A DNA stretch of 64,000 bases from IMG/VR virus record IMGVR_UViG_3300039191_000223, positions 1 to 64,000 of that record; one strand, written 5' to 3'. The notes beneath the pieces were generated by a model. The model was not told the origin of the DNA and ran no database searches. It worked only from the letters and a program-made list of their open reading frames with translations. Positions 20,230 through 56,372 of this stretch are shown here, one piece after another (the first letter of the stretch is position 1; every line of letters begins with the position of its first letter). Made by a program: the position numbers and the translations under genes. Source of the stretch: a virus.

Positions 20230-20862
20230 TTATGGTGATTCGTTTACAATCATCTTAGCACCGGGATAATTCAAATTGCTCCTAAGATGTATTAGATATT
20301 CATCTCTGGATTGTGTGTTACGAAAGCTTGAATCAACCAGAATTATATCGTATGATGGCCCACCACGCATCTTAACAATAGCATTTTCGATGCCACCAAA
20401 TGTGTGAATTGATCTCGTAATCCACGCTGCCGAAGTTGTTGGATGAATATCTATTCCGATTTTGCCTTTGTTGAAACCGCTAAGTTTATATTTAAAAAGA
20501 CCGATAGTATATAATGCTTGATCTATTGCATGTTGTATCATTCTGTTGTTTTCAGATACATAAACGCATGTCTTATCGTACTTGATTGTATAGTACACTG
20601 CGATCAAAAACATAAGAGTCGTACCTCCCGTCTGCCTTGCGGCGCGACGGACGTTTATGGGCTGCCCATGATGAACTTTGTTTAAAAATTCTTGCTCTTG
20701 GGCCGGGATCAAGAATTCAAGATCAGCAGGCTTTAGATAGCACTCATCCCTAATGAATTTCAGTATTTCGTTAGGAATATATTCGTATTCAAAGTTAGGA
20801 TCAGCTTTATCAAGCTGCTGCTTCAAACTCTCGATTATAGTAGCTTGCACGCCATTCTCCAT
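20230..20862 (-). CDS. degenerate terminase-ATPase paralogue
   Basis: Colinear with TerL N-domain; ARQTGGTT, ILVDSS. Confidence 0.7.
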   Translation of the reverse strand: MENGVQATIIESLKQQLDKADPNFEYEYIPNEILKFIRDECYLKPADLEFLIPAQEQEFLNKVHHGQPINVRRAARQTGGTTLMFLIAVYYTIKYDKTCVYVSENNRMIQHAIDQALYTIGLFKYKLSGFNKGKIGIDIHPTTSAAWITRSIHTFGGIENAIVKMRGGPSYDIILVDSSFRNTQSRDEYLIHLRSNLNYPGAKMIVNESP

Positions 20863-22510
20863 TGATTACATTTATAAGTGCTCGTGAGCCATTCGGATAG
20901 ATTACACAGTGCGTATGGAGCCAACTGGACGGTCCTGAAGCATATTCTAGGTCAAGGTAAGCACATAGTCCTACCTGATACGCTCCCTCAACGATACCCG
21001 GCGAGTGTGAATGACCAATAACTGTCTTCGGTCCAATTTTCGAGAAAGCCTGAATGCTGCCTCGCGAACCATTGATACCACTGTCACCATGGAATCCAAT
21101 TTCAATTCCTCCAACAACGAAGCTTTCATCACGTCCAAGAAACTTAGTATTGTCTACGGATGTAAGCCCTCTCTGTTCAAGCGGGTTCTCACACCAGAAC
21201 TTGAATGCATTGATTGTCTTATAGCCAGTCTTAGTACGCTTGACATTGGATAGCTGATTAAACTTCATGTAGTAGTAGAATCGTGCATTCTCAGGATCAT
21301 CTTTAGGATCAGATTCTTTCAACCATCGCTCGAAGGCTTCATCGTGGTTTGATCTGACGATGAGGTTCAACATTTCAGCACGAGTATGCCGGTCAATGAA
21401 ATCAGCAGACAGTTGCAAACCTTCCTCAACGTTATCCTGCTTGTAATGGTGCTTGCCATATGCGACGATATCATTGCCACGGTGATGGTGGTTGCGGCGG
21501 TAGAAGTCTTCTAGGTCATGATATACCATAACTTCAGGATTCAATACCTCCACAATAGAATTTGGACCGTCGAACATAGCCGACTCAACATTTGGATCAA
21601 TGAACTCAGCATGAATATCACCCGGCACAAAACCTGCGACGCGACCATAAGTCTCGCGACCATGTGGAGTGTAGTAATACTCTAAGTCATAAAAGGACCC
21701 ATCGTCCTCACCATGCACATGGCGCATATGGAACTTGTCACCATCAACTTCGACGATCAGTGCGCTGATATTGTGGTGGAATCGGCCTTTGTGTCCGGCC
21801 TTAGAATCAGTATAGTTCTCAATTGTGCATGCGCCGGTTGTGGTAAGAATCTTTGGCATGTTCTTACTTGGCGTGGCAACAGTCTTGAGTTGGATTTTAG
21901 GATGACCAAGGATAGCAGAATCGCTACCCGTAAAAGCATCAAATCCTGAAAGAGGAGTTACTCCAGTAGGCTGACTCTTAATCTGAGCTAGAAGCTGTAG
22001 CCCCTTGCACATGCGAGTCTTGGAGTCAACAATATAGGGCTTGATGGATTCCCACCAATAATCCGCGTCTTCATTATGCTCGTTCCAAATAGATGTTGGA
22101 TTCTTGTACCGATACGGAATCACCATAAGTTGCGCGTTTCTAAGAGAACAGTATTGGAGAAGTGTAGCAAGGAATCCATCATGAACAGGAGTTGCATTTT
22201 GCGCTGATGTGATTACATATACTTGCTGCGTATTGGGGGCGTTAATCGTCTTGGGAGCATCCTTACTCATTAATTCACTAAAGAAATCTTCAAACTTTTC
22301 AACTTTGGCAACCTCTAATTGACCGTTGAAGGTAGGATCACTTTTTAAGTAGGGTAAGTCTAGACCAGTGGAAGTTTTGATTTCAAGTCGTCTGCGAATT
22401 GCGCTATCCGGCTTGACCCCCAAGTAGGCTGCGAATTCTTCGCGGGTGAACTTGGCTTTTAGCGCAGCGCGATATCGCGCTACGAATTCTTTTTTAGCAA
22501 TACTACTCAT
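20810..22510 (-). CDS. T5 A1-like metallophosphoesterase/nuclease
   Basis: ITSAQNAT, GDIH, HD, SNHD, FHGD, GHSH. Confidence 0.7.
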   Translation of the reverse strand: MSSIAKKEFVARYRAALKAKFTREEFAAYLGVKPDSAIRRRLEIKTSTGLDLPYLKSDPTFNGQLEVAKVEKFEDFFSELMSKDAPKTINAPNTQQVYVITSAQNATPVHDGFLATLLQYCSLRNAQLMVIPYRYKNPTSIWNEHNEDADYWWESIKPYIVDSKTRMCKGLQLLAQIKSQPTGVTPLSGFDAFTGSDSAILGHPKIQLKTVATPSKNMPKILTTTGACTIENYTDSKAGHKGRFHHNISALIVEVDGDKFHMRHVHGEDDGSFYDLEYYYTPHGRETYGRVAGFVPGDIHAEFIDPNVESAMFDGPNSIVEVLNPEVMVYHDLEDFYRRNHHHRGNDIVAYGKHHYKQDNVEEGLQLSADFIDRHTRAEMLNLIVRSNHDEAFERWLKESDPKDDPENARFYYYMKFNQLSNVKRTKTGYKTINAFKFWCENPLEQRGLTSVDNTKFLGRDESFVVGGIEIGFHGDSGINGSRGSIQAFSKIGPKTVIGHSHSPGIVEGAYQVGLCAYLDLEYASGPSSWLHTHCVIYPNGSRALINVINGEWRASYYNREFEAAA

Positions 22511-22537
22511 TGAATCCCCTTTTATTATTTGTTTTTA

Positions 22538-23641
22538 TTAGAAGTATTCTTCCAAGCGGCTGGGTTTGAAATACATCTTGTAGCGATGATCCGTCAAATT
22601 TCCACTATACCGCTCTTTCTTAAACCTGACCTGAAACAGTTCTGTCTTTCCATCCATGATTCTAATTGATGGATTAACATTTTCTGGGCATGTAGCCAAA
22701 AGATCACAATTATATAGTTTATCCACAAGTGGGTTGACAGCAAAGCTTTTATGTTTTATCTTGTTGCTTGGAATAACCAAGCATGTGCAATCGCTAACGT
22801 CGTGCAGGTCTAGACCTGTTTTGGGAGTAACGCCATAGCAGCAACCAAGCATCTTGGCTATTAACTGCATTCTAAAGTCATATAGTGCGGTGTCGTTTGC
22901 GCCCGCCAATCCATCATTTATTTTCCGACACACATTATTGTAGAGACCTCGCGTCGCAAGTTCAACGGACGCTACACTCGGTGAACCATCATTATGTGCA
23001 GTTTGGTAGTATACCGCAGAATCAGGACCAACGTCAACTCCTAAGTTACTCAAAACAAATTGGCGTTGCGTTTCGAATCCATAATCTTTTTCTAATTCTT
23101 TCTGACCTACACCACCAATACCAGTTCGATGATCATATATTGGCATCACAGTGTTGAACAATTTAACATGCTCATTGTCAATCATTATTGAAGTGGCCTT
23201 CGGCTCACCCACTGACATATTATCTACATCAATTATAATACGATTCATAACGCCATTATTTGTTACAGTTTCAACCATGGCACCGAAATCAGAATCATTA
23301 TTCAAATAATCAAGTATGCTCCGAACCATGCAAAAGTCGGGTGACATACGATCTGAGAGTTTGGTTAGAATGTAGTTTCTAGTAGCTTCGGAGGCTGGGG
23401 CACGAAGTGTAATTTGGTCGTAAGTGTTATGTGCGCTTTCCATGTTTGTAAAATTAATGGTGCTCCTTCCTTCACGCAAATAACTCAGCATCCGTATAAA
23501 GTGAGACGGCATAACTGGCACACCTTGGTTCTTCGTCAAGAATGCACTAGCCACACAGTATGCCAAAACAACACATGCTGCGTCATCTAGGGTTTCCTGT
23601 GGCACAACTGGCCTGTGTATTTCGGTTAAGAAACTTGTCAT
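22538..23641 (-). CDS. hypothetical protein
   Basis: 367-aa ORF. Confidence 0.65.
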   Translation of the reverse strand: MTSFLTEIHRPVVPQETLDDAACVVLAYCVASAFLTKNQGVPVMPSHFIRMLSYLREGRSTINFTNMESAHNTYDQITLRAPASEATRNYILTKLSDRMSPDFCMVRSILDYLNNDSDFGAMVETVTNNGVMNRIIIDVDNMSVGEPKATSIMIDNEHVKLFNTVMPIYDHRTGIGGVGQKELEKDYGFETQRQFVLSNLGVDVGPDSAVYYQTAHNDGSPSVASVELATRGLYNNVCRKINDGLAGANDTALYDFRMQLIAKMLGCCYGVTPKTGLDLHDVSDCTCLVIPSNKIKHKSFAVNPLVDKLYNCDLLATCPENVNPSIRIMDGKTELFQVRFKKERYSGNLTDHRYKMYFKPSRLEEYF

Positions 23642-24090
23642 TCTGTCTTATCACCTTCCATATTCCTACGCAACTGGGTTAACAATGCCGTTCGATCATC
23701 TACGATCAAAGTATTGTTATTTGTCACATGGGATGGTCCACTTGTTTTCTTTGCTTCAAGCTTATCCTTGTGCTCTTTAAGCCTCGCTTTATGCGAGGCG
23801 GCGTTTAGAGCAGCATTTAAGTGCTGAACCGATACTTCACCAACTCTCGCCTTAAACTTACCTTCAACTGTATGAAGTTCGTCGGATAGCAGATCAAAGC
23901 CGTCCATGGCGCTGTCGTAAATTTCCTGATACTGTGAATCAATCTCTTTGTCTTTATCGTCATACTCACGGGCGTTAACAAGTTCACCTTCCCGCTCGTA
24001 AACTTCTACTTCCGTAGTACCTGTTTCGATATCAAAGACTTCTTCGAGTGGATGCTCAATTGTTTTTACTACTTTATTTTCGTCTGACAT
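23638..24090 (-). CDS. terminase small subunit (gp16-like)
   Basis: Size, ARVGEV helix, TNNNTLIV tail; CATAAATA at 24118-24125. Confidence 0.6.
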   Translation of the reverse strand: MSDENKVVKTIEHPLEEVFDIETGTTEVEVYEREGELVNAREYDDKDKEIDSQYQEIYDSAMDGFDLLSDELHTVEGKFKARVGEVSVQHLNAALNAASHKARLKEHKDKLEAKKTSGPSHVTNNNTLIVDDRTALLTQLRRNMEGDKTE

Positions 24091-24127
24091 AATTCCCGCA
24101 CCTACATTCTGTATGGGTATTTATGCC

Positions 24128-24388
24128 TTACTGACCGTTTAGCTCCATAAGGTGCTCTTCAATCAATTCTAAAACATCATCCCTGACACCTTCAATCGAT
24201 GAGTCAATAGCCTCCTGCGGAAGTGATTCACCATATGTCTGCTGATACCATTCTTTAAAACTGTATACTGTATTAAACTTTTCAGCAACATAATTGGAAT
24301 ATTCGGTTTGTCGCGTTAGAAATTGATCAAATTCGGCTTCTGCCTGCTCCACTACATCATCAATATCTTCGTATAAATCACTCATCAT
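24128..24388 (-). CDS. hypothetical protein
   Basis: Acidic ORF; start MMSDLYE. Confidence 0.5.
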   Translation of the reverse strand: MMSDLYEDIDDVVEQAEAEFDQFLTRQTEYSNYVAEKFNTVYSFKEWYQQTYGESLPQEAIDSSIEGVRDDVLELIEEHLMELNGQ

Positions 24389-24671
24389 CAGAGTCCTTTT
24401 CGGTTTTAGTTTCCGTGTTGCCCATAAGATCACCATACTTCTGTTCCGCATACTTCAGTCCAAGCCTGTTCAATTGGGCCTGCATTGACATACTTGCGTG
24501 CGTCAACTTTTGACGTTCATATTCTTCATCTACAATCTCTTGTCGTAAACGATCAAATTGCTCAAGGCACTGTTTCAGTGCCGGGTCTTGATCCAGTTCA
24601 GATCGTGGTAGAGTGATAGTTCTATCACCCATATTCACCGCAACTGACTGGACAGGTTCAACTTTAATCAT
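24378..24671 (-). CDS. hypothetical protein
   Basis: 97-aa ORF. Confidence 0.55.
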   Translation of the reverse strand: MIKVEPVQSVAVNMGDRTITLPRSELDQDPALKQCLEQFDRLRQEIVDEEYERQKLTHASMSMQAQLNRLGLKYAEQKYGDLMGNTETKTEKDSDDE

Positions 24672-24672
24672 A

Positions 24673-26151
24673 TTAATCTTCTCCTGCGAAGTCTTTTATT
24701 AGATTTTGAAGTTCATCAAAATCTTCGTGTGTTGCCTTTATTTTAGGCATGATTGGGGGCTGGTCCGCATCATCAAACATCGGCCTAACCTCCGGCTCAT
24801 CATCTTCCGGCATACCCGGAAGTCCGTTAACCAAAATTTCTTCCGGTACTTTGGGTTCGTTTATCTTGGCCAAAGCATCTTCCATGTCAGCCTTAGCTTT
24901 TCTTTTACGTGGCATGACGCCTGAACCACCCCCGTCCAAATTACTAATTCTCAGATTAGTTGAGTTGAAATTCAGGATTGAACAATGACCAACACCACGA
25001 CTTGAACGAGTCTTTAGGAAGTAAGCATTCATTTCACCTTCAAGACGCATGGTGTCATCCATGAACAGTGAAATATAATTGTCCACGGTGTTGACCTTTG
25101 AGATACCACCAGCAATAACAGACTGATTAGGTGAAGTCATGCTAATCGCATCACGGTTTTGCTGTGATGCCGATATACCTATCATATCATATTCTTGTAA
25201 TATATCAACTACTTCCTCGGACTTTCTCTTATCTTGTTCGAAGATTCCAAGATTACCCGCACCAGAGTTTGGGTCCATAAGATCAAGATAGTCAACCAGA
25301 AATACATCTGGCAGTTTACCATATTCCATTTCATAAAACGATAAGTATGAACGAAAATCTGCGGCAGTAGAATGTTGTGACATTTTCTTGATAATGTATG
25401 ATCCACCCCCAGCACTATTCTTTGCGTGTATAATTCCAGAACTTATTTCCGGTATGTGCCCCTTCCAGTTAGAAGTATCATAGCCGGAAATGATAGACGC
25501 TAATCGCAAGAACACCATTTCAGCAGGAAGCTCCAATGAAATATACAGTACGTCGTAACCACGTAACGCATAATTAGCTCCGATGTTGGCCAGCATTACA
25601 GACTTACCACCACCCGAATTAGCCGAGAATAGTGTAAATTGCTGCCGAATAAGGCCACCATCAAGTGGTCCATCAATGCCGTCAATACCCGTGGGTATGG
25701 GTGTGAAATCGTCAATAAGACTTCGTAAAAGCTCTTCGGGGTTATTGAATAAATCAACACCCATATCACGCTGAAGGCTTATATTTACAGCCTCCGTAAC
25801 GCGGGCCAGAACCCGACTCATTTCTTGGTTCTCGATATCTTCTAAAGAATTATAAATGGCCTCTTTAACTGCCGTCTCTTTACAGAACTTTTCGATATCA
25901 TCACAAGTTGATTCTACGCGATCACGTGACACTTTAACAGTTGCTTCTATTTCTAGATCAAACTCGGCGGCTATTTGGTCAACCGCTGGAGTTGCACTAT
26001 ATTTACCATAGTACTCGTGAATAAATGCTACAATGGGTTCGTATTCCTGATCAAAATAAGAAGGTTTTAAAATTCCAGACGTTTGCGTGTATATTTCAGG
26101 GGATGAAAGTAAATCTTGTATAATTAGTTTTTGTTTTTTGTTATTTGCCAT
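24673..26151 (-). CDS. replicative helicase (gp41/DnaB-like)
   Basis: SGGGKS, YISLEL, VDYLDL, SASQQNR, LKTR. Confidence 0.9.
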   Translation of the reverse strand: MANNKKQKLIIQDLLSSPEIYTQTSGILKPSYFDQEYEPIVAFIHEYYGKYSATPAVDQIAAEFDLEIEATVKVSRDRVESTCDDIEKFCKETAVKEAIYNSLEDIENQEMSRVLARVTEAVNISLQRDMGVDLFNNPEELLRSLIDDFTPIPTGIDGIDGPLDGGLIRQQFTLFSANSGGGKSVMLANIGANYALRGYDVLYISLELPAEMVFLRLASIISGYDTSNWKGHIPEISSGIIHAKNSAGGGSYIIKKMSQHSTAADFRSYLSFYEMEYGKLPDVFLVDYLDLMDPNSGAGNLGIFEQDKRKSEEVVDILQEYDMIGISASQQNRDAISMTSPNQSVIAGGISKVNTVDNYISLFMDDTMRLEGEMNAYFLKTRSSRGVGHCSILNFNSTNLRISNLDGGGSGVMPRKRKAKADMEDALAKINEPKVPEEILVNGLPGMPEDDEPEVRPMFDDADQPPIMPKIKATHEDFDELQNLIKDFAGED

Positions 26152-26265
26152 ACTTACTCCTGTGAGCAGAATTATATCAAACTCCCATCAAACATTCAAT
26201 CCATTCGATCCATTCGATAGTAAGGGGTATGTATGGCGGTTCAATAGCGGATGTTATTTCTACGA

Positions 26266-27957
26266 TTACGTTTCATCATCTAGAAAAGCATCCTTATCAT
26301 CTGGGTTGGTTACTGTGGATTCGTTTGGATTCAATTTATTCTGAAGCTTCGGTTCAGTGTTCTTGAATTCGGCGCGACGATCCTTCTCCAAGAATATCCA
26401 ACGGCTTTTCGCAGAAGACCAACGATGTAGGCGTGCAGGGATACCTGAACGAATAGAAGTATACGTTAGTCGGTGGTAGTCCCCATCTTTTGGCTTAGCA
26501 GGGAAGTCGTCACCCTGAGTATAATCCTCACCATTAGGAGGCATAGCATCCACACCAAACTGTGCCCGAACACGATCAATGCGCTTCGCAACATCACGAC
26601 TGCCCTGATCTTCTGCCCAATCGTAAAATTCATCTGAAATCTTGGCAATATCGGCATAGTCTACGCCTCGTACTGGAGTCTGAGTGTTCGCATCAGCGTC
26701 AATCGTTTGGGATATATTCGATAAATCTTGATACTTTTTATCACTTGAACCATCGTCAATATCGACCGTTCCAAGATTATCAGTATCCTGAGTGAGCTTA
26801 CCCATGATATCTTGCGTTTCTTGTGACGCCATCACCGGACGTGCGATCAAACGCTGCATGGTTGGAATCCAGTTTGGAGTGTAACCATTCGTGCTCCATG
26901 CAACATCACTGACTTCCAAATAACGAAGCACTGGCTTCAAGCTCGGAGTATACTGCGTTTCTGACGGGAGTTGGAGAATGTCACCAATAACAAAAGGACG
27001 CCCAAGTAACGATATCGCAGATGAAAAGCTTACTTCAATAATCCACTCGTCTCCAGAGAATTGAGTACCGAAGCCCCACTTGGATTGATTGGACTGAATG
27101 TCAATTGGCTGATAAGAACCTTTCATTCGAATGGGGTTCTCATCATAATCTCGATCCCTATTCTCTAGAAAGATACGGTCCTGTATGTTGTCTACACGAG
27201 TTGCTTCATAGTCAAGAAGTTGCAATGCTTGAATTTCCCAAGCATCAGTCTCAGTACCGTTGAACGCGATAGGTCTTAGACGCCAGAAGCGTGAAGGCAC
27301 GCTACGCTTGAAATTCACACGAGCCGCACCCTCACAATCTGGAAGATCGACAACCTGTACACCAAACCACTTCTCACCATCACTAGAACGCTCTACACGA
27401 GCCTTAGTGACACGATTCTCTGAGCGGCATCCCTGTCTAATCTTAATCGCCGCTACATCATGCTTGACAAACGTTTCTAGACCGTAACGTTTCCTTCCAT
27501 TGTCGAGTAGTAATTCACCGAAATCATATCCAATATAAGCAGACGACGTAACTTCAGCCCCAAGCTGAATAGAACGCCATTGCGTTGGGAATAAAGTGAA
27601 TGCATTCGTAGCTGGGAAATTGGGGTGCGAGCCATTTGAAACCGCAACACCACTTCTCCCAGTCAAGTCCTGTAGATAGCCTTGTTCATGCACACCAAGC
27701 ATGCGATATACGTTGACTACAGCACCACCGATAGTGATAGACTCACTAATATAAGCATCAATGACACAAGAGTCTGCGCCTTCGGTAAGCTCCCATGCTG
27801 GGGTCGGATCATCACTCGCACAGTTTAACGCCGGATTCAAGGACTTACATATCTTAGAGAGTGCATCATTCTGTGGCGGGGCAATAAAATTACCATCCCC
27901 ATCTACAGGACAATTACCACTGTTTAGTAATGCATCTAATTGACTTGTTATACTCAT
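26266..27957 (-). CDS. gp14-like neck protein with inserted discoidin-like domain
   Basis: ISESITIGG..VNVY, SKWG, GDILQLP; SSDG..W and RFWRL insert. Confidence 0.6.
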   Translation of the reverse strand: MSITSQLDALLNSGNCPVDGDGNFIAPPQNDALSKICKSLNPALNCASDDPTPAWELTEGADSCVIDAYISESITIGGAVVNVYRMLGVHEQGYLQDLTGRSGVAVSNGSHPNFPATNAFTLFPTQWRSIQLGAEVTSSAYIGYDFGELLLDNGRKRYGLETFVKHDVAAIKIRQGCRSENRVTKARVERSSDGEKWFGVQVVDLPDCEGAARVNFKRSVPSRFWRLRPIAFNGTETDAWEIQALQLLDYEATRVDNIQDRIFLENRDRDYDENPIRMKGSYQPIDIQSNQSKWGFGTQFSGDEWIIEVSFSSAISLLGRPFVIGDILQLPSETQYTPSLKPVLRYLEVSDVAWSTNGYTPNWIPTMQRLIARPVMASQETQDIMGKLTQDTDNLGTVDIDDGSSDKKYQDLSNISQTIDADANTQTPVRGVDYADIAKISDEFYDWAEDQGSRDVAKRIDRVRAQFGVDAMPPNGEDYTQGDDFPAKPKDGDYHRLTYTSIRSGIPARLHRWSSAKSRWIFLEKDRRAEFKNTEPKLQNKLNPNESTVTNPDDKDAFLDDET

Positions 27958-27960
27958 CTG

Positions 27961-32105: not shown

Positions 32106-32450
32106 TTAACTTTCAATGGTATTACTGTTGATCCACTTGTGGATTTTTTTGTTGTTCCAGCAGGGGTACACTTCTTTATCACCATCTTCGGATATAAGAA
32201 CAATACGTTTTGCAGTCGGGTAATCATCAAATTCATCTACCTTTTCCCAAAGGACTTCAATTCTGTCCTTTGGTCGGAAGGATACATAACTTCGATCATC
32301 GTTGTCCAGTGCTTCAAACACCGGGAACTTACAATACTTTTTCAACGTGTATTCATTCCGAATACGTGGTACACTATCACACGCTGATAAAAGCTTCTTC
32401 TTAGAAACATAGTACTCACTAAAGCTTAATCGTTTCATATTACTCTTCAT
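32106..32450 (-). CDS. hypothetical protein
   Basis: 114-aa ORF. Confidence 0.55.
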   Translation of the reverse strand: MKSNMKRLSFSEYYVSKKKLLSACDSVPRIRNEYTLKKYCKFPVFEALDNDDRSYVSFRPKDRIEVLWEKVDEFDDYPTAKRIVLISEDGDKEVYPCWNNKKIHKWINSNTIES

Positions 32451-32841
32451 CGTCTGCTAGTTCGATGTGCGGCCAGTCCATAAACTTATGGTCCGTAATA
32501 TCACCGTCTACGTCCCAATCAAAACCGAAACGTAATTTAATACCCTTAACAACCGCGATGCCTCTAATCAATCCACCAAGGTGTGCAAACCTTTTAAGGT
32601 CTTCCCAATCAATTGGATACGGTGCAATGTCTACTGCACGTGAAGGCATACTATTATGCTTGCTGTTTGGCCACTGTACCTTACTGTTTTCAGATTGAAA
32701 CGCAGTGGTCTGATCTGCTTCATTTCGGTGCCCACATAAAACACTGAAATCAACATGTTTAATAGCTTCGTTAAGGATTTCTTGTAGTTTTGGATGGCAT
32801 GTATCTAAACGTCGTTGGGATGTGGGTCCAAATTTGTACAT
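32440..32841 (-). CDS. endolysin, M15 (L-Ala-D-Glu) peptidase
   Basis: GHR, SKHN, AVDI, DWPHIEL. Confidence 0.9.
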   Translation of the reverse strand: MYKFGPTSQRRLDTCHPKLQEILNEAIKHVDFSVLCGHRNEADQTTAFQSENSKVQWPNSKHNSMPSRAVDIAPYPIDWEDLKRFAHLGGLIRGIAVVKGIKLRFGFDWDVDGDITDHKFMDWPHIELADDEE

Positions 32842-33000
32842 TACACAACTCCTGTTTTCAATATTTATATCCTATGAAAACATTAGTGGAATATATTGGA
32901 ACATATGGACAGTAAATAATGCCAATACTGAGCGCTTCATTATAGTTAGCGCTCGCTTGGCGCATATTACCATCGGCTTCCTCAAGAAATTTAGAAAAAT

Positions 33001-33138
33001 CTAATCGGTCAATGTGGTCTTCCACTCCACTCCACCTGAAGCTTCAAGAATATCTTTCATTATTTTTTCATCAATATCTTTAGCTATTTCAGCAGCCATT
33101 ATCTTTGTTAATTCATGTTCAATGTCAAAGTTATTCAT
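33001..33138 (-). CDS. 45-aa peptide resembling the major capsid spine helix
   Basis: MNNFDIEHELTKIMAAEIAKDIDEKIMKDILEASG vs gp23 GLDLESEITKALSAEIVQEIDAEIINDLLALAG. Confidence 0.65.
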   Translation of the reverse strand: MNNFDIEHELTKIMAAEIAKDIDEKIMKDILEASGGVEWKTTLTD

Positions 33139-33231
33139 ATACCAAACCATCTAGATCATTCATAATTGTTTATGACTTGTATTTAGTAGCATTTTCAAGC
33201 CATGCTATTGTTTGTAAGTTTCCTTAAGCAC

Positions 33232-33262
33232 AAAAAAAGCCCCGCACGGAGCGGGGCTTTTT
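33232..33262 (-). terminator. Rho-independent terminator of the capsid gene
   Basis: aaaaaaagccccgc-acgga-gcggggcttttt. Confidence 0.9.
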
Positions 33263-33308: not shown

Positions 33309-34706
33309 TTATAGGAACTCAAGGTTAGTAACATTTATACGCCCATAATAGTCGGCGCTATTGCCGAGGGAGGTCGTTGGATCGGTTAGTGCAACCTTAC
33401 CGTAACGAGTCATTAGAGAAACAACTGGCTGGAAGGTAACTGGGTTAACAACTACACCGCTGCTCATTAGAGGAACGTATGGTGCGTAGAAGTAACCGGC
33501 ATCAACCTCACCGTTGCCACCTTTGTAACCGACAAGAATCTTGTCGTCGCCGTTTGGCGAAGATGAACCCGGTCCTGCTTGGTTCCACAGGTAGGAGTAA
33601 ACCTTGATACGTCCGTTAAGCGTACCGACTAGCTCGGTGTTGTTTGGACCCTTGAAGTCACCTTCAACTGCTGGGGCAAACACTGCCTTGGCTGCCGACT
33701 GTAGTACGGAAACGATCATTGGGGAAACCACAATGAAGTTACCCGAACCACGACGCGTCTTACGAGCGATGACGTTTGCTACTTCGTTGATGCGAACACC
33801 AAGGTTAGCGAAACGGTCACCAACGAACGCGGGAGCGTAAGTCGTACCACCGGTTGCGGAGAAGTCAAATGTACGAACCGTACCAGCAAGAGCTAGAAGG
33901 TCGTTGATGATTTCCGCGTCAATTTCCTGCACAATCTCTGCAGATAGTGCCTTCGTGATTTCGGACTCAAGGTCTAGACCATGCTGACTGTTTAGGTCCT
34001 GCATAGCTTCGATTGTCCAACCACTCTGTAGCTTACGGCTACCAGCTTCAACTGCCTGCGAGATAACTTCTAGGCTCATCTTACGACCACCAGAACCTTC
34101 GATGAAGGAACCCGAACCACCAAGCATAGAACCACCAACGTTTACGGAGTAACCCGAGAAGTCGGTCGTGCCTGTGTCGTAGGTTGTTACGTCCTGCGAG
34201 GACTCCCATGCGCCACCTTCAGCCGTTGCCGCAGCAATGTCTGTAGTTGCAGCAGCATCGTGTGCAATACCGGAAGCACCAGCTTCTTCAGCCGCGCCCG
34301 TGTTACCAGCGTAGAACTGGCGGATTGGCTTGTCGTTACCGAAAGCTTCTTCGCCTGCTGCGATGTCAAAGCCACCAAACTGCGAACTTGCCGTGTTTTG
34401 GGTCATATCTTCTTCGTACTTGTAACGAAGCGTGTAGATAAGACCAACTGGTCCGCTCATTGGCTGAACACCGACAAGCTCTGTTGCGATGGTGCCCGGA
34501 ATAATACGACGGATCATCGGTAGTAGAGTCTTACGGAAGTTTGCGATATCGTGCCCCTGTACGGAGCCAGCTGCCGCTGATTCACGTAGCATGTACTGCT
34601 TCTGGTTCTCTAGAAGAGGACCTACAACTTCTTTTTGGGACGGCTTAAGACCATCGAGAAGAGCCTCTTTAGTAACGTCCCAGTTTTCAAATAGTGAATT
34701 GTCCAT
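33309..34706 (-). CDS. major capsid protein (gp23-like)
   Basis: LLENQ, GVQPMSGPVGLIY, SRKL..WTIE..QDL, YAPYVPL, MTRYG. Confidence 0.97.
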   Translation of the reverse strand: MDNSLFENWDVTKEALLDGLKPSQKEVVGPLLENQKQYMLRESAAAGSVQGHDIANFRKTLLPMIRRIIPGTIATELVGVQPMSGPVGLIYTLRYKYEEDMTQNTASSQFGGFDIAAGEEAFGNDKPIRQFYAGNTGAAEEAGASGIAHDAAATTDIAAATAEGGAWESSQDVTTYDTGTTDFSGYSVNVGGSMLGGSGSFIEGSGGRKMSLEVISQAVEAGSRKLQSGWTIEAMQDLNSQHGLDLESEITKALSAEIVQEIDAEIINDLLALAGTVRTFDFSATGGTTYAPAFVGDRFANLGVRINEVANVIARKTRRGSGNFIVVSPMIVSVLQSAAKAVFAPAVEGDFKGPNNTELVGTLNGRIKVYSYLWNQAGPGSSSPNGDDKILVGYKGGNGEVDAGYFYAPYVPLMSSGVVVNPVTFQPVVSLMTRYGKVALTDPTTSLGNSADYYGRINVTNLEFL

Positions 34707-45275: not shown

Positions 45276-45276
45276 A

Positions 45277-45540: not shown

Positions 45541-45576
45541 TTTTAAATTACCTAGTTAGTTTTTGTACAGCAAATG

Positions 45577-46764: not shown

Positions 46765-46815
46765 TGGTTAATCTCCTTCAATTTCGAGTGAGCTTACCGT
46801 GGCAGAAGCAAGCTG

Positions 46816-47451: not shown

Positions 47452-47477
47452 ATTATCTCCTTCCGTTTTATATTAGC

Positions 47478-48143: not shown

Positions 48144-48457
48144 AGCTTAGCTTGCTCCAAGCGAATGCCTTTCAATTTACCTTCCAAGAAAAGATTACGA
48201 ATGGCTTTACGGGTTTCAAGATTAACATCCACCCCATCAGCGGACAACCATTCGATTAGCTCATCCGGCGTTCTAGGGTATTTAACATCAGAAGTTTCAT
48301 CGTCATCAATGATGGTTGGTTTCGATGGTACAGCGTTTACAGTGACGATGCCACTGTCGCCCCTATTCTTGAAGTATCTATAGATTACCCAAATAGGTGC
48401 AATAACTACAGATGCTGCTCCAAGAAGCATTCCCAACACAAGAATAATTTCCAACAT
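48140..48457 (-). CDS. small membrane protein
   Basis: N-terminal TM, AGGAG RBS. Confidence 0.6.
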   Translation of the reverse strand: MLEIILVLGMLLGAASVVIAPIWVIYRYFKNRGDSGIVTVNAVPSKPTIIDDDETSDVKYPRTPDELIEWLSADGVDVNLETRKAIRNLFLEGKLKGIRLEQAKL

Positions 48458-48514
48458 TTTTTCTCCTAAATGACCAAAGCCTTGAAGGATACTTTACCCT
48501 TCAAGGCTTTGGAC

Positions 48515-48542
48515 ATTCTACCAATTTTATAGAGTTTGTCAA
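48515..48542 (-). promoter_or_regulatory. sigma70-type promoter for the RNA-ligase operon
   Basis: TTGACA-16-TAGAAT. Confidence 0.7.
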
Positions 48543-48552
48543 CCCCCTAAAA

Positions 48553-48582
48553 AGAAAAGCCCTCTTCGGAGGGCTTTTCTTT
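48553..48582 (-). terminator. Rho-independent terminator
   Basis: agaaaagccctc-ttcg-gagggcttttct. Confidence 0.85.
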
Positions 48583-48583
48583 A

Positions 48584-49819: not shown

Positions 49820-49828
49820 TATAGCCTC

Positions 49829-51109
49829 TTATCTAAATCGTTTGGAACCATGGACCCAAATAACTAAGGCCCATCGTTCACCTTCTTGCATTGGTGTTAC
49901 TTTATGTAGACAATAACTTGGGAACAGTGCCAAAGCACCCCGATCCCGCGAAGCATTTAGCATTTCACCGTTGCTATTGACCATCAAATCACCACCAGTA
50001 TATTGATCAGGTGCGGTTAGTTGCACCGACACACTAATTTTCCGCGTAGAACTTGTCATGTTTCCCACGTCAACATGCCACTCATAGTGGCCGGGGTCTT
50101 CGCCAGAATCGTAATGTAGAAGCTGGAGTTCATGCGTAATCCCCATGATTTCATAATCAAAGTGTTCCGCGTTTACAATACTCACAATACGCGCTAGCTT
50201 ATCAAATGCCCAACGTGTATCATCGTTCATTGGAATTTGATATAAGTCTACATTGCGAATATCTTTCTTAATTAGACCATCAGCACCAGCACCTATACTG
50301 CCTTCTTCCGCGTACATGGATGATGCAAACCCAATGATCCGTTCACACTCTTCTGGGGTAAACGCAAGGTTTGGATGTGTTGTAGACGTAATACTAGCTA
50401 AACCGGGAATCTGTAGGTCCCAACTTGGAATCATTACACCGTTATAAATCGGGAATACTCCTTGTCGCGATTGTTTTACGTTACCAGTGTCAGGACTTTG
50501 CTGCCCTACAGTTTGGTTTTGATTTTCTGCCTTAGTGTCGGCACCCAGCCCAAGCTCAGGTCTGCCGTCAAATTTATTATCTTTGTGTGGTCCGTTGGCG
50601 TCTACGAAATGAAAAAATACTTGGCACTGCCATTCACCTTTAAATTCTGGACGCCAATGTACAAGGTCTTCTCCACGGTATAGCAAAAAGTCACCAATCT
50701 TAAGATCAACACGTTTCCCGCGTTCATCGTTAGGGTCAGCCGCTAGATAAATTGGCCAGACATTCATGCCATCAAATCCCAGCGTTAGTGTACCGCTAAT
50801 CTCACATGATGGGCGATCAGTATGTCGCGATAGCACTTCACCCGTTCGATAGATACGCGCATAGGTATATGTTGGGGTCAACTCTTTTCCAATGTGCTGT
50901 CCAATTGGCTCAGCAAGTTTTTCTAACAATCCATCAAACACTGGATCACCATAAATCGCTTCCGACTTAGGACACTGGTCATCCTTCACCATTTTACCAT
51001 CTTCACACAATTGGAACATACGCTTTGTTAGATTTTCACATAAATCTTTGGATAGCACATCATGCAACAGAACATATGAATTATTCTCAAAATATTCTCT
51101 GGGCGTCAT
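49829..51109 (-). CDS. tandem 2OG-Fe(II) oxygenase (two domains)
   Basis: HTD...HWR and HVD...RKIS...HKV...R. Confidence 0.88.
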   Translation of the reverse strand: MTPREYFENNSYVLLHDVLSKDLCENLTKRMFQLCEDGKMVKDDQCPKSEAIYGDPVFDGLLEKLAEPIGQHIGKELTPTYTYARIYRTGEVLSRHTDRPSCEISGTLTLGFDGMNVWPIYLAADPNDERGKRVDLKIGDFLLYRGEDLVHWRPEFKGEWQCQVFFHFVDANGPHKDNKFDGRPELGLGADTKAENQNQTVGQQSPDTGNVKQSRQGVFPIYNGVMIPSWDLQIPGLASITSTTHPNLAFTPEECERIIGFASSMYAEEGSIGAGADGLIKKDIRNVDLYQIPMNDDTRWAFDKLARIVSIVNAEHFDYEIMGITHELQLLHYDSGEDPGHYEWHVDVGNMTSSTRKISVSVQLTAPDQYTGGDLMVNSNGEMLNASRDRGALALFPSYCLHKVTPMQEGERWALVIWVHGSKRFR

Positions 51110-51936
51110 GTCAATACCTCTGGATAAAACATTTCATAATACGGTAGGTTGCGTTCTATAATTTGCTTGTGGAATGCAGGATCGCTTACGCGCTTTTCTT
51201 TCTTCTTTGTCAGCAGCGAGGGCGATACCTTATGGCTAGTCCGCTCTCGGAAATAGACGGCATCGTGTTCATAGATTTCAGATTGTTGAATATTGTCAAA
51301 ATCGTGTTCGAATTTTTCTTCACCTAAGAACGAGTATACCCTATTTAACTCTTTGAACGGATCGACAATAAGGTCTTCATATCGAATGAAAATAACGTCA
51401 CGGGTCTGCTTGCGTGCAGCCTCTAGTACACGAGGAAGCTCATAGGTGAACGCCCCCGACAAAGGGTTTCCCGTTTCGAAATAATAGCGATATCGTTCTT
51501 GATCTGTCATACCCGGAAGTAACCCATGAGTTTTATCAAAGGTATGCATGATTTTTGTTTTTGCATTTACACGATCAAAGGATTCGACAATATCTCGTAG
51601 ATCACGAATCATAGCAATGTATTTACCTTCGGGGAACAGGTGGTAATAGCCCGACCAATTTCTAGACTTAGAAATGACCACTGGCTTATCAGTAAGTGCA
51701 TCAAACCAACCATGGACCCCGGCAATCGCAAATCCGTGCAATGCTTCGTCAGCCCGCTCTATAGGCATAGCCATGAATTCTTCACGACCCCTAGTGTTAA
51801 TTGCGACTTGATTTAGGATGTTAGGAACAGGACACGTTCCGGTTGTAAAGATACGATGATTTTGCTGAAGGACGTTCATTAAAACTGTAGAGCCTGAACG
51901 AGGGAGTCCCCCACAGAAGTGCAATTGTTTTGGCAT
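51106..51936 (-). CDS. sulfotransferase
   Basis: GLPRSGST, RD...S, RYEDL. Confidence 0.88.
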   Translation of the reverse strand: MPKQLHFCGGLPRSGSTVLMNVLQQNHRIFTTGTCPVPNILNQVAINTRGREEFMAMPIERADEALHGFAIAGVHGWFDALTDKPVVISKSRNWSGYYHLFPEGKYIAMIRDLRDIVESFDRVNAKTKIMHTFDKTHGLLPGMTDQERYRYYFETGNPLSGAFTYELPRVLEAARKQTRDVIFIRYEDLIVDPFKELNRVYSFLGEEKFEHDFDNIQQSEIYEHDAVYFRERTSHKVSPSLLTKKKEKRVSDPAFHKQIIERNLPYYEMFYPEVLT

Positions 51937-51951
51937 ATAAAATCTTTATGT

Positions 51952-52029
51952 TGGTAGCGGGGGGAGGATTTGAACCTCCGACCTCCAGCGTATGAAACTG
52001 GCGAGCTAACCAAACTGCTCTACCCCGCA
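51952..52029 (-). tRNA. tRNA-Met(CAT), initiator-like
   Basis: GCGGGG acceptor with 1:72 mismatch, loop TTCATAC, CCA. Confidence 0.85.
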
Positions 52030-52578
52030 ATCGTTAATTATTTTATCCTACAGACTCTTTGAGTTCTTTTAGCTCACTAGTTAAGTCACTTATAGTCTTA
52101 TTGGTATCCTTAAGAGCGAGAGTATCTGTATGATAAAAACAATGAAATGGAATTTTGTTTGACTGCATTTCTATGTATAAATCAGAATTTTTAAATTTAT
52201 CAGCTACTTCCTCTATCTTTTCTTTAACAAGGTGGGATAGTATTGCACCAACATTAACCGTTATGTCGAATATATAACCTGTCTTATCGCCACCTAAATC
52301 AATTGGTATTACGTTTATCATTATTATTATCCTTTATTTATATACTGGAATTATATCAGTGAGCATCAATGTTTATTTGACTTGCTAGTTTTGGAATGGA
52401 ATATCCTATACCTTCAACAATGGCAAGAAAGATATTCCCATCATAGACCAGATCAGCTGTTTTAAGTTTACGCTCAATATCACTACCCTCTTCACGGGCC
52501 AGCCTTTCAAGCTGTTCCATCGTGGCAATAGTGTAGTCCACATCTTTTGATTCTTTGATCATTTTTTACTCGCTTTTT

Positions 52579-52655
52579 TGGTACGTCAGGTGGGACTTGC
52601 ACCCACTGCCTTCCGCTTATAAGACGGACGCTTTTACTACTTCAGCTTCTGACGC
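52579..52655 (-). tRNA. tRNA-Ile(TAT)
   Basis: TCCGT-CTTATAA-GCGGA; T-loop TGCAAGT; CCA. Confidence 0.8.
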
Positions 52656-52727
52656 ATTGGATTTTTTAAACGTGCTCAATTCCAATGCGTCGTATTCGTT
52701 GTGTCATTTTCTTCATTTACGTTTTCC

Positions 52728-53225
52728 TTAAAAATCAATATTAAATACTACTGGAAAGCTCTCATAAGAACCATCCTCCGCTATGTTCAAAACAATTGCC
52801 TGAATCTCTACTTCACCCAATTCAGGGTAGTTCAGTAGTGTGTAATACATATCGATATCGTTATTTAGTGTACCGGCAAGACCTGTATATCCAAATCCCG
52901 TATAGCTACCTTCAAGTGCTGGAGAGAAAACATAGTTACCAGTCATAGCAGACTGAAATACTGATACCAAAACGGGAGATGCAATAATCACTTTCTTATG
53001 TGCGTTAGTATCGACTAAAGCTAGTACTCCATCCGTTACCTGCTCCAACGCCTTAGCCAATGGAAAGTGACCTGATGGTGAGATATCACCCAAATCAACA
53101 ACGGGCGTATTCATGATTAGTTGCTTTTTAAATACCAAATCAATACAAAATACCACTTCGCTTTCGACTTCGACTTCGACTGTTTGCTCACGGATACTGT
53201 TATAATGTCCAGTAGCAATTACCAT
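52728..53225 (-). CDS. truncated major capsid protein paralogue
   Basis: IIASPVLVSVFQSA..VFSPALEG...LAGTLNNDIDMY vs gp23 IVVSPMIVSVLQSA..VFAPAVEG...LVGTLNGRIKVY. Confidence 0.75.
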   Translation of the reverse strand: MVIATGHYNSIREQTVEVEVESEVVFCIDLVFKKQLIMNTPVVDLGDISPSGHFPLAKALEQVTDGVLALVDTNAHKKVIIASPVLVSVFQSAMTGNYVFSPALEGSYTGFGYTGLAGTLNNDIDMYYTLLNYPELGEVEIQAIVLNIAEDGSYESFPVVFNIDF

Positions 53226-53311
53226 ATTCCCCGGCTTGATACTACCGAATAGTTGATGTTCAAATGATGTTCAAATGATGTTGATGTGATATCGATCATG
53301 TAAATTTTCCA

Positions 53312-53677
53312 TTAAGTTCCGAACTTCTGCTTAAGGCGTTCGAATTCTGCCTTGTCTTTCTTATCCCGTTGTTCTTTTAATCTCTTTTCTTTTGCGATTT
53401 TATTATTGCGACGCTTGCGAGTAGCCTCTACTCGCTTTGTCATTTCTTTATCGCTTTCCCAACGCATATACATAATGTGATGAATATTAGTTGCAAAATC
53501 CCAAGCTATTGCAATATTCTCTGAATCACATGCGCCTAGTTCATCAATCGCATATGATTCTATGTCTGCTAGACATTGACGCATTTCTGTAATACAACCG
53601 GTTGCCCTATATTCTGGCAGAGGATGGGATCGCCCAATCTTAATACGTGTGCTGTAATAGGGATCGTTGTCTCCCAT
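53312..53677 (-). CDS. hypothetical protein
   Basis: 121-aa ORF. Confidence 0.55.
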   Translation of the reverse strand: MGDNDPYYSTRIKIGRSHPLPEYRATGCITEMRQCLADIESYAIDELGACDSENIAIAWDFATNIHHIMYMRWESDKEMTKRVEATRKRRNNKIAKEKRLKEQRDKKDKAEFERLKQKFGT

Positions 53678-53681
53678 TTTC

Positions 53682-54134
53682 TTAATCCTTTCTGATAGAA
53701 TCTCTAATCTTATGTAGTCTACTACAAAACTCCTGTCGAGTCAATACAGTTTCATTCTGTTTGGTTCGACCAATACTGTGCTTCAATACAGCATTACCGG
53801 TTGCCTTCAAAGCATTAAGAGCCTTCTCGTTTTGTGTGAACATTGTCGAGTACGCTTCATCGAGCAAGTCTTGATATTCTTGAGAATCACGTTCAAGCGG
53901 CTCACCATCCCACCACAAGATTTGCGTGCGCTGCCAGTTCTTCTTTGCCCCGGAACGCTTAGCTGCTAATCCAGTCAACGTGCAGATGTGTCGCTGCATA
54001 TCGGGCTCTTTAAATTTAAGTGATTGTAGGAACCCTTCCATAGAAGAAACTGCCACACCACGAAATACAAAGGGGTGTGGGGCGAAGTTACTTAGTGCTC
54101 CGGCGGGGTATCCGCTACCGGATTTAATGTCCAT
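53682..54134 (-). CDS. NADAR-family protein (T4 30.3-like)
   Basis: LSNFAPHPF, SMEGFLQSLK, ALKATG..LKHSIG. Confidence 0.8.
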   Translation of the reverse strand: MDIKSGSGYPAGALSNFAPHPFVFRGVAVSSMEGFLQSLKFKEPDMQRHICTLTGLAAKRSGAKKNWQRTQILWWDGEPLERDSQEYQDLLDEAYSTMFTQNEKALNALKATGNAVLKHSIGRTKQNETVLTRQEFCSRLHKIRDSIRKD

Positions 54135-54462
54135 CGTAATATTCACCGCGAGCCTTAAGATAAATTACATTCGCAACGTGTCTCGCCCTTGCACTCGGAA
54201 ACCAATCCAGTAGGTTCAGAGTGTCATAGTATAGTGCGAAGTTTTCAGTGAATTCCTCTTTCGTGAGCCCATACTCAACAACATAATCAGCAAGATGATT
54301 CACCATAAATTCAGCAGTACGAAGTCTAATATAAATTGTGGCAAACAAACACAATGTGGTTAGGAAAAAAGAAATCATATTCTGCACCTTAAGCCATTTT
54401 AGATACGTTGTTTGTGTAAATGAAGGATTTTACTTTTAGGATACTGGTACTGATTCGAAAAC

Positions 54463-54538
54463 TGGTGCCGCCACGAGGATTTGAACCCCGGACATTCTGA
54501 TTACAAGTCAGACGCTCTACCAACTGAGCTATAGCGGC
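54463..54538 (-). tRNA. tRNA-Thr(TGT)
   Basis: TCTGA-CTTGTAA-TCAGA, CCA. Confidence 0.93.
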
Positions 54539-54550
54539 ATATTCGTTTAT

Positions 54551-55255
54551 TTATGCTGGCATGAGAACAGTATTCTCATACAGTTTCTGTCCTTTAACGT
54601 AATTCAATTCACCAAAGATGAAGTCCTTGAAGAACGGAGTATCAAGATAACTATCTTGCCACATTTCTAGAATCAAAATGGGACGATCCCTCCTAAGCAA
54701 TTCTGTCGCACCTTTCAAAGCTTCTTCTTCATATCCCTCAATGTCCAAATGAATTATACTAACCCGATGTCTGGGATGTATAGCCCAATCAAGTATAAAG
54801 ATTAGAACCTCTTCTGAGTTATCTTCTGTAGCTACCCAGCGATCAGATTCTACCTTACTTGCGCATCCGATATCCTTGCCCTGTTCTTTAGTAATCATGC
54901 GAATGGTTTCACCATGGGTAGAGCCAAGGGCAGCATGAATAACTTTCGTTTGGTGCGTATGGTAGTTTAGATCAACGGTGATCTTTGCACAACGATAGTT
55001 TTCGAACACTGGTTCAAAAGCATACACTACTGCGTTATCAGATGCAAGTGCGGGGAGAAAATCACCAAAGTATGCACCTGCATGAACTACAGCACCATCG
55101 CCACGGTTTGCAAGAATGAAGTCAATTGTATCTTTTTCATACGTGTGCCCACCTAGTATCCTTCCAGCAACAGTTCGGTGACTCGAAGAGCGAGGGATAC
55201 AATAGTTCCCATATTTGTTTTTTGCAAAAATGCAATCAATCGCTTCTGACATCAA
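54551..55255 (-). CDS. FkbM-family methyltransferase
   Basis: HAGAYFG, AFEP, HLDIEGYE. Confidence 0.85.
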   Translation of the reverse strand: MMSEAIDCIFAKNKYGNYCIPRSSSHRTVAGRILGGHTYEKDTIDFILANRGDGAVVHAGAYFGDFLPALASDNAVVYAFEPVFENYRCAKITVDLNYHTHQTKVIHAALGSTHGETIRMITKEQGKDIGCASKVESDRWVATEDNSEEVLIFILDWAIHPRHRVSIIHLDIEGYEEEALKGATELLRRDRPILILEMWQDSYLDTPFFKDFIFGELNYVKGQKLYENTVLMPA

Positions 55256-55682
55256 TTTCTCCCAACGATGTACAACCTAGCACAGACTTCGTGCTTATTT
55301 TCGAAATCAAAAATAACCTCAACACCATCTATTGACTGCTTGGTGCTTGGTGCTTGGTGCCGTGTATCGCCATTTATGCTTAGGGGGGCGGTGTTATAGT
55401 TATTTATGTATCCAGTACCATTTGCCGCCGCTCTCAATGACTGTAGGCAGTACGCCGTGAACCTTGTTAAATATCGCGCTCCACTGACCAATGTCAATAC
55501 TACCATCCTCATTAACATATCTTTTATACGTGAAGCCACAACATGGCATACAGTGCATTATACTTTCACTACCATGACACTCACAGTCGCATATTTGACT
55601 TTTTTAAAATTATCTTCCACAATCAGTATCCTCAGACAGTTTTTGTAATACGCTCACCAGCATGCCTTAGCTATTGATTTCT

Positions 55683-55757
55683 GGGTGCTTCCTGCCTGAT
55701 TCGAACAGGCGATTTGAACTTACGAGGTTCGCGTTTTTCCAGCTAAACTAAGGAAGC
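55683..55757 (-). tRNA. tRNA-Thr(CGT)
   Basis: GAAC-CTCGTAA-GTTC; 3' end ACCC(A). Confidence 0.8.
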
Positions 55758-55965
55758 AATTACTACAACTGTTTAAATAATTCTATTCGCATATTTTCAC
55801 GTTTGAGCATTAGCTTGTCCATTTTGTCACGATCTTCGGGACTGGGTTGCTCTTTCGTGCTATACGCTTCACACCATAAGGATTGTATTTCATCCCAATT
55901 TTCTTTCATGTCATCAAAAATTTCTTTATTTTTAGGGGGGTTCATTATTATATTTATTCTTTCAA

Positions 55966-56372
55966 CTATGCGCTTATCAACAAATTTTGGGGACGAAGGT
56001 TGATGTGCTGTACCTCACAGCTAGTAATCAACGTCTTGTCATCCCAATCGGGGGTAACAAAAAAGACTGGGGTGAGCAAAAGCTCATCTGCCATATTCTC
56101 GGCCATTTTACCTGCGGGGTATCAAGAAAACGAATCGATGCACAGAGATAACCTTCAGAATCAATGTAAAGATTATCAACCCAATGGCTGACCTTAGACG
56201 GATTAACATCGTATTTATCTACGTCAGATTCATCTTCAAGCATGCCAATGAAATTTTCACGAACCAGATATGTTTCGATAGCACCCTCCAACATGATCTT
56301 GGGAAAGATCAAACCCTTATTCGGAGTAGGCTCATCAACTTTCATGCGACTGCGGTAGATTCGATTAGTCAT
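55966..56372 (-). pseudogene. degenerate prohead-protease (gp21-like) paralogue, frameshift at C4 run ~56116-56119
   Basis: N.GLIFPK..LE.AI, VSH....LYID, FLDTP then AGK in the next frame; lacks ELxHP His and SSRG Ser. Confidence 0.6.

Follow-up and report, generated by a model that had tools for sequence, protein, structure and literature searches.

Dead and truncated copies of head-morphogenesis proteins in an XacN1/Rak2-type jumbo phage: probably separate histories rather than one decoy system

The first 64,000 nucleotides of the IMG/VR virus record IMGVR_UViG_3300039191_000223 (hereafter the window), a 102.7-kb contig estimated to hold about 30% of its genome, carry four open reading frames (ORFs) related to the phage's own head-morphogenesis proteins: a 210-aa copy of the large terminase (TerL), a 49-aa and a 165-aa piece of the major capsid protein (MCP) and a short relative of the prohead protease, 135 aa when intact. 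An original prediction, made from these letters alone, read them as a single coordinated set of decoys for immune sensors. The analysis presented here does not support such a set. The four ORFs are probably independent products of duplication, splitting and recombination of head genes in XacN1/Rak2-type jumbo phages, found at different stages. The TerL-like and the protease-like copies are conserved pseudoenzymes that belong to kinds already noted in the literature, the 49-aa piece is debris, and the 165-aa piece is specific to the strain.

The source is an XacN1/Rak2-type jumbo phage from lake water with a gp23-type capsid. Its own MCP shares 73% identity with the MCP of Xanthomonas phage XacN1 and 66–68% with those of Xoo-sp13 and of Stenotrophomonas phages CM1 and RAS14, the gene order from capsid gene to terL is the same as in XacN1 and Xoo-sp13, and near-identical DNA occurs in lake-water and salt-lake metagenomes; the sequencing runs listed for it include no RNA run. 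The contig encodes a genuine TerL, MCP and prohead protease, the last outside the window (Table 1), and head genes are involved in three of its roughly six paralogy relations. The four homologies claimed by the original prediction all hold, with corrections, on profile, BLASTP, fold and hhalign evidence; the lost catalytic residues and the partial coverage likewise bear out that the copies are dead or truncated. As these partial copies share only 19–42% identity with their own parents, none of them is a recent duplication, in agreement with what had been deduced from their divergence at the DNA level. A 571-aa gene (89302-91014) was also considered as an MCP relative, but the match was set aside because the hidden Markov model (HMM) included mispicked ORFs; the gene probably encodes the portal.

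The 210-aa copy matches TerL weakly when compared directly (phrog_2, E=5e-3; BLASTP with the TerL of the phage itself, E=2e-3, in the stretch around Walker A), and the decisive evidence comes from its 35-member family, whose profile matches the same TerL with E=6e-30. It aligns to TerL residues 32-219 alone: the ORF stops just past motif III and the C-terminal RNase H-like nuclease domain is absent. Its AlphaFold2 (AF2) model, built from a 35-sequence alignment, has a predicted local distance difference test score (pLDDT) of 91.5, and the best Foldseek matches of this model are the TerL ATPase domains of HK97, D6E, T4 gp17 and P74-26 (top entries 6z6d, 5oea, 2o0j and 4znk; probability 1.00). 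Pfam Terminase_6N is matched by 9 of the 35 family members. The Walker A lysine is lost (ARQTGGTT, versus SARQTGKT in TerL), and Walker B reads ILVDS instead of YCDE, with the aspartate retained and the catalytic glutamate replaced. Taken together, the motif losses, the pLDDT and the structural matches identify a real, folded, catalytically dead TerL core, which is what the original prediction had described as a terminase ATPase domain devoid of catalytic residues.

This protein is not an isolated case. A profile derived from four proteins retrieved 84 cluster representatives among 1.84 billion proteins, mostly of 163–260 aa and including a few full-length TerLs. The family comprises dozens of clusters at 50% identity that share a core motif of their own, RRxGG[ST]TL (lysine replaced by glycine), followed by RG, by YDxIxxD without the glutamate and by GKxIxN. 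In four related loci (L012, L013, L014 and L015), positional homologues of 187–190 aa separate the A1-like gene from terL. In the closest relatives (L010/L011), the A1-like gene abuts terL with no homologue in between, and both the complete genome G010 and the 90%-complete G013 carry TerL alone, even by profile search; the gene is therefore accessory. It is also the fastest-evolving gene of its neighbourhood, ranging from no detectable match up to 30% identity in genome pairs where the seven flanking genes share 36–77%. A tblastn search of the 210-aa protein against 50,697 phage records gave no match, and a related-locus search with it found no locus. The family is thus widespread, fast-evolving, dispensable and kept directly upstream of terL.

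This location is that of a small terminase (TerS) gene, as the 210-aa gene stops at 20230 and terL starts at 20187, and one explanation holds that the dead TerL core is the functional TerS of the clade, essential for packaging. The annotation of the Xoo-sp13 homologue as 'terminase small subunit' and the failure to find a T4 gp16-type TerS (PF11053) in four near-complete relatives are consistent with this explanation. However, a gene that is absent from the complete G010, from the 90%-complete G013 and from L010/L011 does not behave as an essential one, it evolves far faster than its neighbours, and the protein has no TerS Pfam match and adopts the core fold of an additional strand, conserved glutamate (ASCE) ATPase instead of a helix-turn-helix with oligomerisation architecture. 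A role as TerS is therefore rated as highly unlikely. Most likely, the 210-aa protein would act by binding, as a non-catalytic TerL core that optionally modulates the packaging motor, its partner being either TerL or the DNA/portal at the motor.

A second dead TerL ATPase-domain paralogue, of 254 aa, is encoded outside the window, 376 nt before the end of the contig. Its Walker A motif is RQSGVTT (lysine replaced by valine) and its Walker B motif WCDD (DE replaced by DD), and it appears to be orthologous to gene 242 of Xoo-sp13 and to CBB_274 of Pectobacterium phage vB_PcaM_CBB. More generally, paralogues of the TerL N-terminal domain (TerL-N) lacking the lysine lie directly upstream of terL in G003, G006, G011, G014, G016, Xoo-sp13 and CBB. 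CBB_274 has been termed an unusual, truncated large terminase that is present in Rak2-like phages and in Sinorhizobium phages phiM12/phiN3; its report noted the truncation, without mention of lost catalytic residues or of a function (PMC5259590). In CBB, as in GAP32 and phiM12/phiN3, the arrangement resembles that of the window, with a short ORF restricted to TerL-N beside a full terL (PMC5259590). CBB_274 has lost both the Walker A lysine (RGAGLST) and the catalytic glutamate (YDS), and matches the 254-aa copy with E=9e-10. Compared with it, the 210-aa copy is shorter, ends after motif III and is far more diverged; furthermore, unlike CBB, the source phage has two dead TerL copies, one of which has moved away from terL. 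The 'terminase large subunit' pair of Escherichia phage WPEC3 was rejected as a case of paralogy, since its overlapping ORFs (115 and 445 aa) span about one TerL and are read, from their lengths, as a split terL.

The second pseudoenzyme is the protease-like gene. Compared directly with the real protease, the copy gives no significant match (E=0.87), but the profile of its four-member family aligns with true proteases over 117 columns (hhalign probability 97.3%, E=2.7e-11). The family HMM matches the phage's own protease (E=1e-6), and one member, L113, matches phrog_207. In the alignment, His79 of the protease (GELDHP) is replaced by glutamate and Ser132/133 (GISSRG) by phenylalanine; the catalytic histidine and serine, which the original prediction had described as missing, are also absent from the other three family members. 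The alignment ends at residue 155 of the 213 of the protease, the C-terminal third being missing. Short relatives of 132–167 aa occur in G003, G011 and G012, and overall some 4 of the 16 relatives have the gene. The G003 copy is a syntenic orthologue with 34% identity, versus 53% for the adjacent gene. A tblastn search of the 114-aa protein against the same 50,697 phage records gave no match.

In the window, a C-run at 56115 is one nucleotide short, and the reading frame of this gene is lost after codon 86. The strain variant P0003 encodes an uninterrupted protein of 135 aa, and contigs of all four other metagenome runs carry an extra base in the C-run that restores the frame; therefore the gene is intact in the population, and the window shows either a rare allele or an error of assembly. 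One of the four runs has an in-frame 15-nt insertion in the gene. Ten single-nucleotide polymorphisms were found in 3.9 kb over the four runs, none of them in the 165-aa ORF, which is too little variation for an estimate of the ratio of non-synonymous to synonymous substitution rates. Other homopolymers also differ between this assembly and the contigs of the four runs: an extra base at 55599 is present in 3 of 4, and may mean that the window breaks another small ORF upstream of 55252-55539, and one of the four lacks a base at 54365.

Similar short paralogues are documented in phiKZ-like phages, where SPN3US gp117, 201phi2-1 gp206 (145 aa) and PhiPA3 gp143 (136 aa) are C-terminally truncated and diverged relatives of the prohead protease (PMC5694885). 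Like gp117, the copy studied here is a paralogue, recognisable by profile methods only, of its phage's own gp21-type protease, of about 135–145 aa, devoid of the C-terminal targeting region (PMC5694885). However, it belongs to a T4-core, XacN1-like lineage and not to a phiKZ-like one, and whereas gp117 aligns a serine and an aspartate with catalytic residues, here both the histidine and the serine are replaced. The 135-aa protein would most likely bind the partners of the protease (the protease itself, the scaffold or the core) without cutting.

The two capsid pieces have another history. The 49-aa ORF extends the 45-aa peptide (33001-33138) of the original prediction; its match to the capsid protein stands, but it is one piece of a relic and not a free-standing mini-gene. 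Thirty-six of its residues are 42% identical to the MCP (E=4e-9), and its match to Pfam Gp23 (PF07068), at E=2e-5, lies exactly at the gathering score and covers 35 of 376 profile positions. A second piece, in another frame, matches a more C-terminal part of the MCP. The two pieces are collinear against the MCP of every relative, and are separated by 87 nt here versus about 360 nt in an intact gene. As the independently assembled contig L128 is identical throughout this region, the breaks in the frame are genuine. The 49-aa ORF has no visible Shine-Dalgarno sequence, and CTAAATA, the motif put forward as its promoter, shows no enrichment (8 occurrences versus 11.5 expected). The T4-type late promoter motif TATAAATA, which is strand-biased in the contig (9 on the minus strand versus 2 on the plus strand), was also considered as the promoter of the peptide and rejected, as it stands before the next gene instead.

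The relic lies behind the intrinsic terminator of the capsid gene, in a variable slot whose far edge is this late promoter. The slot is empty in relatives that include the closest one, namely L094 (whose capsid protein is 94% identical), L019 and L022, where the late promoter follows the terminator almost immediately. In other relatives it holds an HNH homing endonuclease gene (L017:3177-4787, phrog_559, 2e-81), an ORF for an HNH-like zinc-finger protein (L016:4103-4978) or an SNase gene (L020:5496-5951). The relic has no orthologue and is unique to the strain. The presence of two frames, the internal deletion and the mobile-element slot lead to the conclusion that the peptide is part of a decayed copy of the capsid gene, that is, debris. 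Its position in this slot points to homing traffic as a possible origin, a link that is drawn from position only because no endonuclease gene is left beside the relic.

Free-standing homing endonucleases beside conserved T4-type genes are encoded by the seg/mob genes of T-even phages. The head loci of the clade show comparable traffic, with inteins as well as HNH genes: besides the HNH genes of L017/L016 in the capsid slot, the terL gene of L014 (L014:2105-4966) contains a LAGLIDADG intein, from which it follows that mobile elements target head genes in this clade, and terL is split in G004 and G007. Unlike a seg/mob locus, the relic has no adjacent endonuclease gene. The relic can also be compared with T4 gene 24, which lies directly downstream of gene 23 and encodes the vertex protein gp24, a paralogue of gp23 (PDB 1YUE). 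The relic likewise occupies the position immediately 3' of the capsid gene, but both capsid pieces are fragments (36+23 and about 120 aligned residues) that fall short of a full HK97 fold and have no orthologues, and one of them is frameshifted.

The 165-aa ORF encodes, after an unrelated leader, a fragment of the capsid A-domain, in agreement with the original prediction. Identity to MCP 312-375 is 42% over its residues 67-132 (E=4e-11), and the alignment extends over about 120 residues at about 35% identity, with the invariant residues of the MCP family kept. A Pfam scan of the ORF gave no match. Among 5.8 billion proteins, its only homologue is that of the near-identical strain variant P0001; no orthologue was found in the 16 relatives, and a related-locus search with the protein found no locus. 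The relatives carry their own, different truncated MCP paralogues (133–394 aa). The AF2 model (30-row alignment) has a pLDDT of 36.9, although such a poor model is no proof of disorder. The leader contains a GTCGAA hexamer repeat (53140-53190) that is longer by 12 nt in P0001. A CATCATTTGAA repeat upstream of the ORF (53240-53290) is likewise longer by 11 nt in one run.

The ORF is flanked by transfer RNA (tRNA) genes and belongs to an island of about 8 kb, which also encodes a sulfotransferase, a gp30.3/NADAR-like protein and an FkbM methyltransferase and which G003 lacks at the syntenic position. It would be a strain-specific fragment that was imported into, or created within, this accessory/tRNA island, and that may or may not be expressed. 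A sigma-70 promoter and terminator scan of 51.5–57.2 kb gave results at chance level. NADAR enzymes reverse the ADP-ribosylation of DNA, and the gp30.3/NADAR gene, one gene (53312-53677) away from the 165-aa ORF, is a candidate counter-defence gene. The minus strand of the window carries 11 tRNA genes (38830-61010) among small accessory ORFs; an 'ORF' at 51821-52030 overlaps a tRNA-Met gene (51952-52029), and the tRNA-Thr gene at 54463-54538 attracts a pile-up of reads from many unrelated organisms.

Near-full-length capsid paralogues of 380–394 aa are found in relatives (L002:31936-33078, which is gene 243 of Xoo-sp13; L121:1517-2689; L120:989-2173), and in Xoo-sp13 and G011 they adjoin terL and its dead copy. 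These paralogues, of which the 102.7 kb of the contig yielded none, may be vertex proteins similar to gp24.

Table 1. Partial copies of head genes, their parents and associated features (window positions unless stated otherwise)
Feature	Position	Strand	Remarks
Catalytically dead TerL ATPase-core paralogue, 210 aa	20230..20862	-	Between T5 A1-like gene and terL
Relic piece 1, 49-aa ORF	33001..33150	-	Matches MCP 242-277
Relic piece 2, stop-free stretch in other frame	32861..33043	-	MCP 398-420 at ~32873-32941, BLASTP E=2e-4
Capsid A-domain fragment, 165 aa	52728..53225	-	MCP 293-427, after unrelated ~40-residue leader
Prohead-protease paralogue, short and catalytically dead (135 aa in intact allele)	55966..56372	-	Split into 56028-56372 (114 aa) and 55966-56106
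Second dead TerL ATPase-domain paralogue, 254 aa	Contig 101559-102323 (L100:18559-19323), outside window	-	32% identity to TerL 32-269, E=6e-38
Genuine large terminase TerL, parent of dead copies	18625..20187	-	Pfam Terminase_6N and Terminase_6C, PHROG TerL families; Walker A SARQTGKT, Walker B CDE (YCDE)
Genuine gp23-type MCP, parent of capsid fragments	33309..34706	-	Pfam Gp23, E=2e-100
Genuine prohead protease	Contig 86319-86960, outside window	-	The phage's own protease
Intrinsic terminator of capsid gene	33232..33262	-	GC hairpin then T-run; relic behind terminator
T4-type late promoter TATAAATA of next gene (32440-32841)	32862..32869	-	Far edge of variable slot
gp30.3/NADAR-domain protein	53682-54146	-	Pfam Phage_30_3, 1e-57; one gene (53312-53677) upstream of 165-aa ORF

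The decoy explanation supposes that the copies are made early and occupy the sensors of TerL, capsid and protease, i.e. Avs, CapRel/Lit and the cyclic oligonucleotide-based antiphage signalling systems (CBASS), without activating them. Phages do encode anti-defence mimics and sponges, such as the DNA mimic Ocr and the signal sponges Tad/Acb, and by analogy the copies could likewise be small accessory proteins acting by binding and not by catalysis. In favour of it, the parents are known as triggers, the copies of TerL and protease are fast-evolving and patchily present, and those of capsid and protease belong to an accessory/tRNA region, next to the gp30.3/NADAR-type gene. However, the 210-aa copy has lost the Walker A lysine, the catalytic glutamate and the nuclease domain, precisely the parts of TerL on which recognition by Avs-type sensors relies. 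The 165-aa ORF retains the MCP A-domain, to which Avs7, Avs8 and Avs10 bind (PMC13581612), but the fragment gives no confident fold. Furthermore, what Avs sensors recognise is a core fold: truncated or catalytically inactive targets activate them, and one conserved segment may suffice (PMC13581612); therefore, a bound fragment would be expected to trigger the sensor and not to silence it. Searches of the literature found no terminase pseudoenzyme, no capsid or terminase decoy and no case in which a phage silences a sensor with a mimic of its own trigger protein.

The distribution of the copies also argues against a single system. Across the 16 relatives and the cultured phages, the phyletic patterns differ: the TerL-like copy is widespread yet lost in the closest relatives, the protease-like copy is limited to a quarter of the relatives or so, and the capsid pieces are private to the strain, so the copies are not inherited together. 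They are spread over 36 kb among unrelated genes, one of them is a frameshifted relic, and the promoter put forward for the peptide did not prove to be enriched. Neutral decay and absence from relatives, which the original prediction itself regarded as incompatible with a decoy function, are what is seen for the capsid relic. On this evidence, a coordinated decoy system is very unlikely. The prediction had named assembly regulators as the alternative, and this is the preferred reading of the TerL-like and protease-like copies, though not of the two capsid pieces.

At the opposite extreme, all four ORFs could be non-functional debris of duplication and homing-endonuclease traffic, with frames that remain open by chance. 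The relic behind the capsid gene, the strain-restricted A-domain ORF without a confident fold, the frameshifted window allele of the protease-like gene, the loss of the TerL copy in close relatives and the inteins and HNH genes at the head-gene loci of relatives would all be expected from such traffic. But debris would hardly keep the motifs of the TerL-core family over dozens of diverged clusters, nor yield so confidently modelled a fold; the pairing of terL with a dead copy has been conserved in XacN1-like and Rak2-like phages alike; and the protease-like gene is intact in every other metagenome examined and has a syntenic orthologue. That all four are debris is thus unlikely. In another explanation, the dead copies would co-assemble with the motor, protease or shell of co-infecting related phages and block it while sparing their own. 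Fast evolution, patchy presence and single domains able to form parent-like interfaces give this competitor poisoning circumstantial support, but no precedent in jumbo phages was found, and neither the relic nor the unfolded fragment fits; it is the least probable of the explanations considered.

Independent origins, the preferred explanation, also have observations to contend with. Mini-copies of TerL, capsid protein and protease recur in relatives, G011 having all three kinds and the complete G010 none. Together with the share of head genes among the paralogy relations of the contig, this recurrence of three head-protein classes exceeds what chance alone would lead one to expect. That the copies of TerL and protease evolve fast and are patchily distributed suits conflict genes equally well. 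In addition, the invariant residues kept by the 165-aa ORF, together with its lack of a stop, suggest that for most of its past selection acted on it at the protein level. These three points weigh against independent origins. The recurrence would fit a broader explanation in which large T4-core phages repeatedly evolve and retain dead, fast-evolving single-domain copies of the head proteins sensed by bacteria (TerL ATPase, prohead protease and capsid A-domain) as conflict proteins, for shielding or competition at host receptors or for the poisoning of co-infecting rivals, the TerL-core and protease-like genes being two working members; this explanation is held to be as unlikely as that of debris alone. 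The explanation favoured here is still that of independent products of head-gene duplication, splitting and recombination.

Dead mini-copies of the packaging ATPase and of the head protease had each been noted once in the literature, in Rak2-like and in phiKZ-like phages, and are now seen in many uncultured large phages. What is new is that the TerL copies make up a large family marked by a lysine-less P-loop motif of its own, that they are dispensable and the fastest-evolving of their neighbourhood, that a phage can carry two of them, and that capsid 'mini-genes' can be plain debris at homing-endonuclease slots. These data single out two families, the dead TerL core and the dead protease, as worth study at the bench, and call for caution against reading every fragment of a head gene as a designed decoy.

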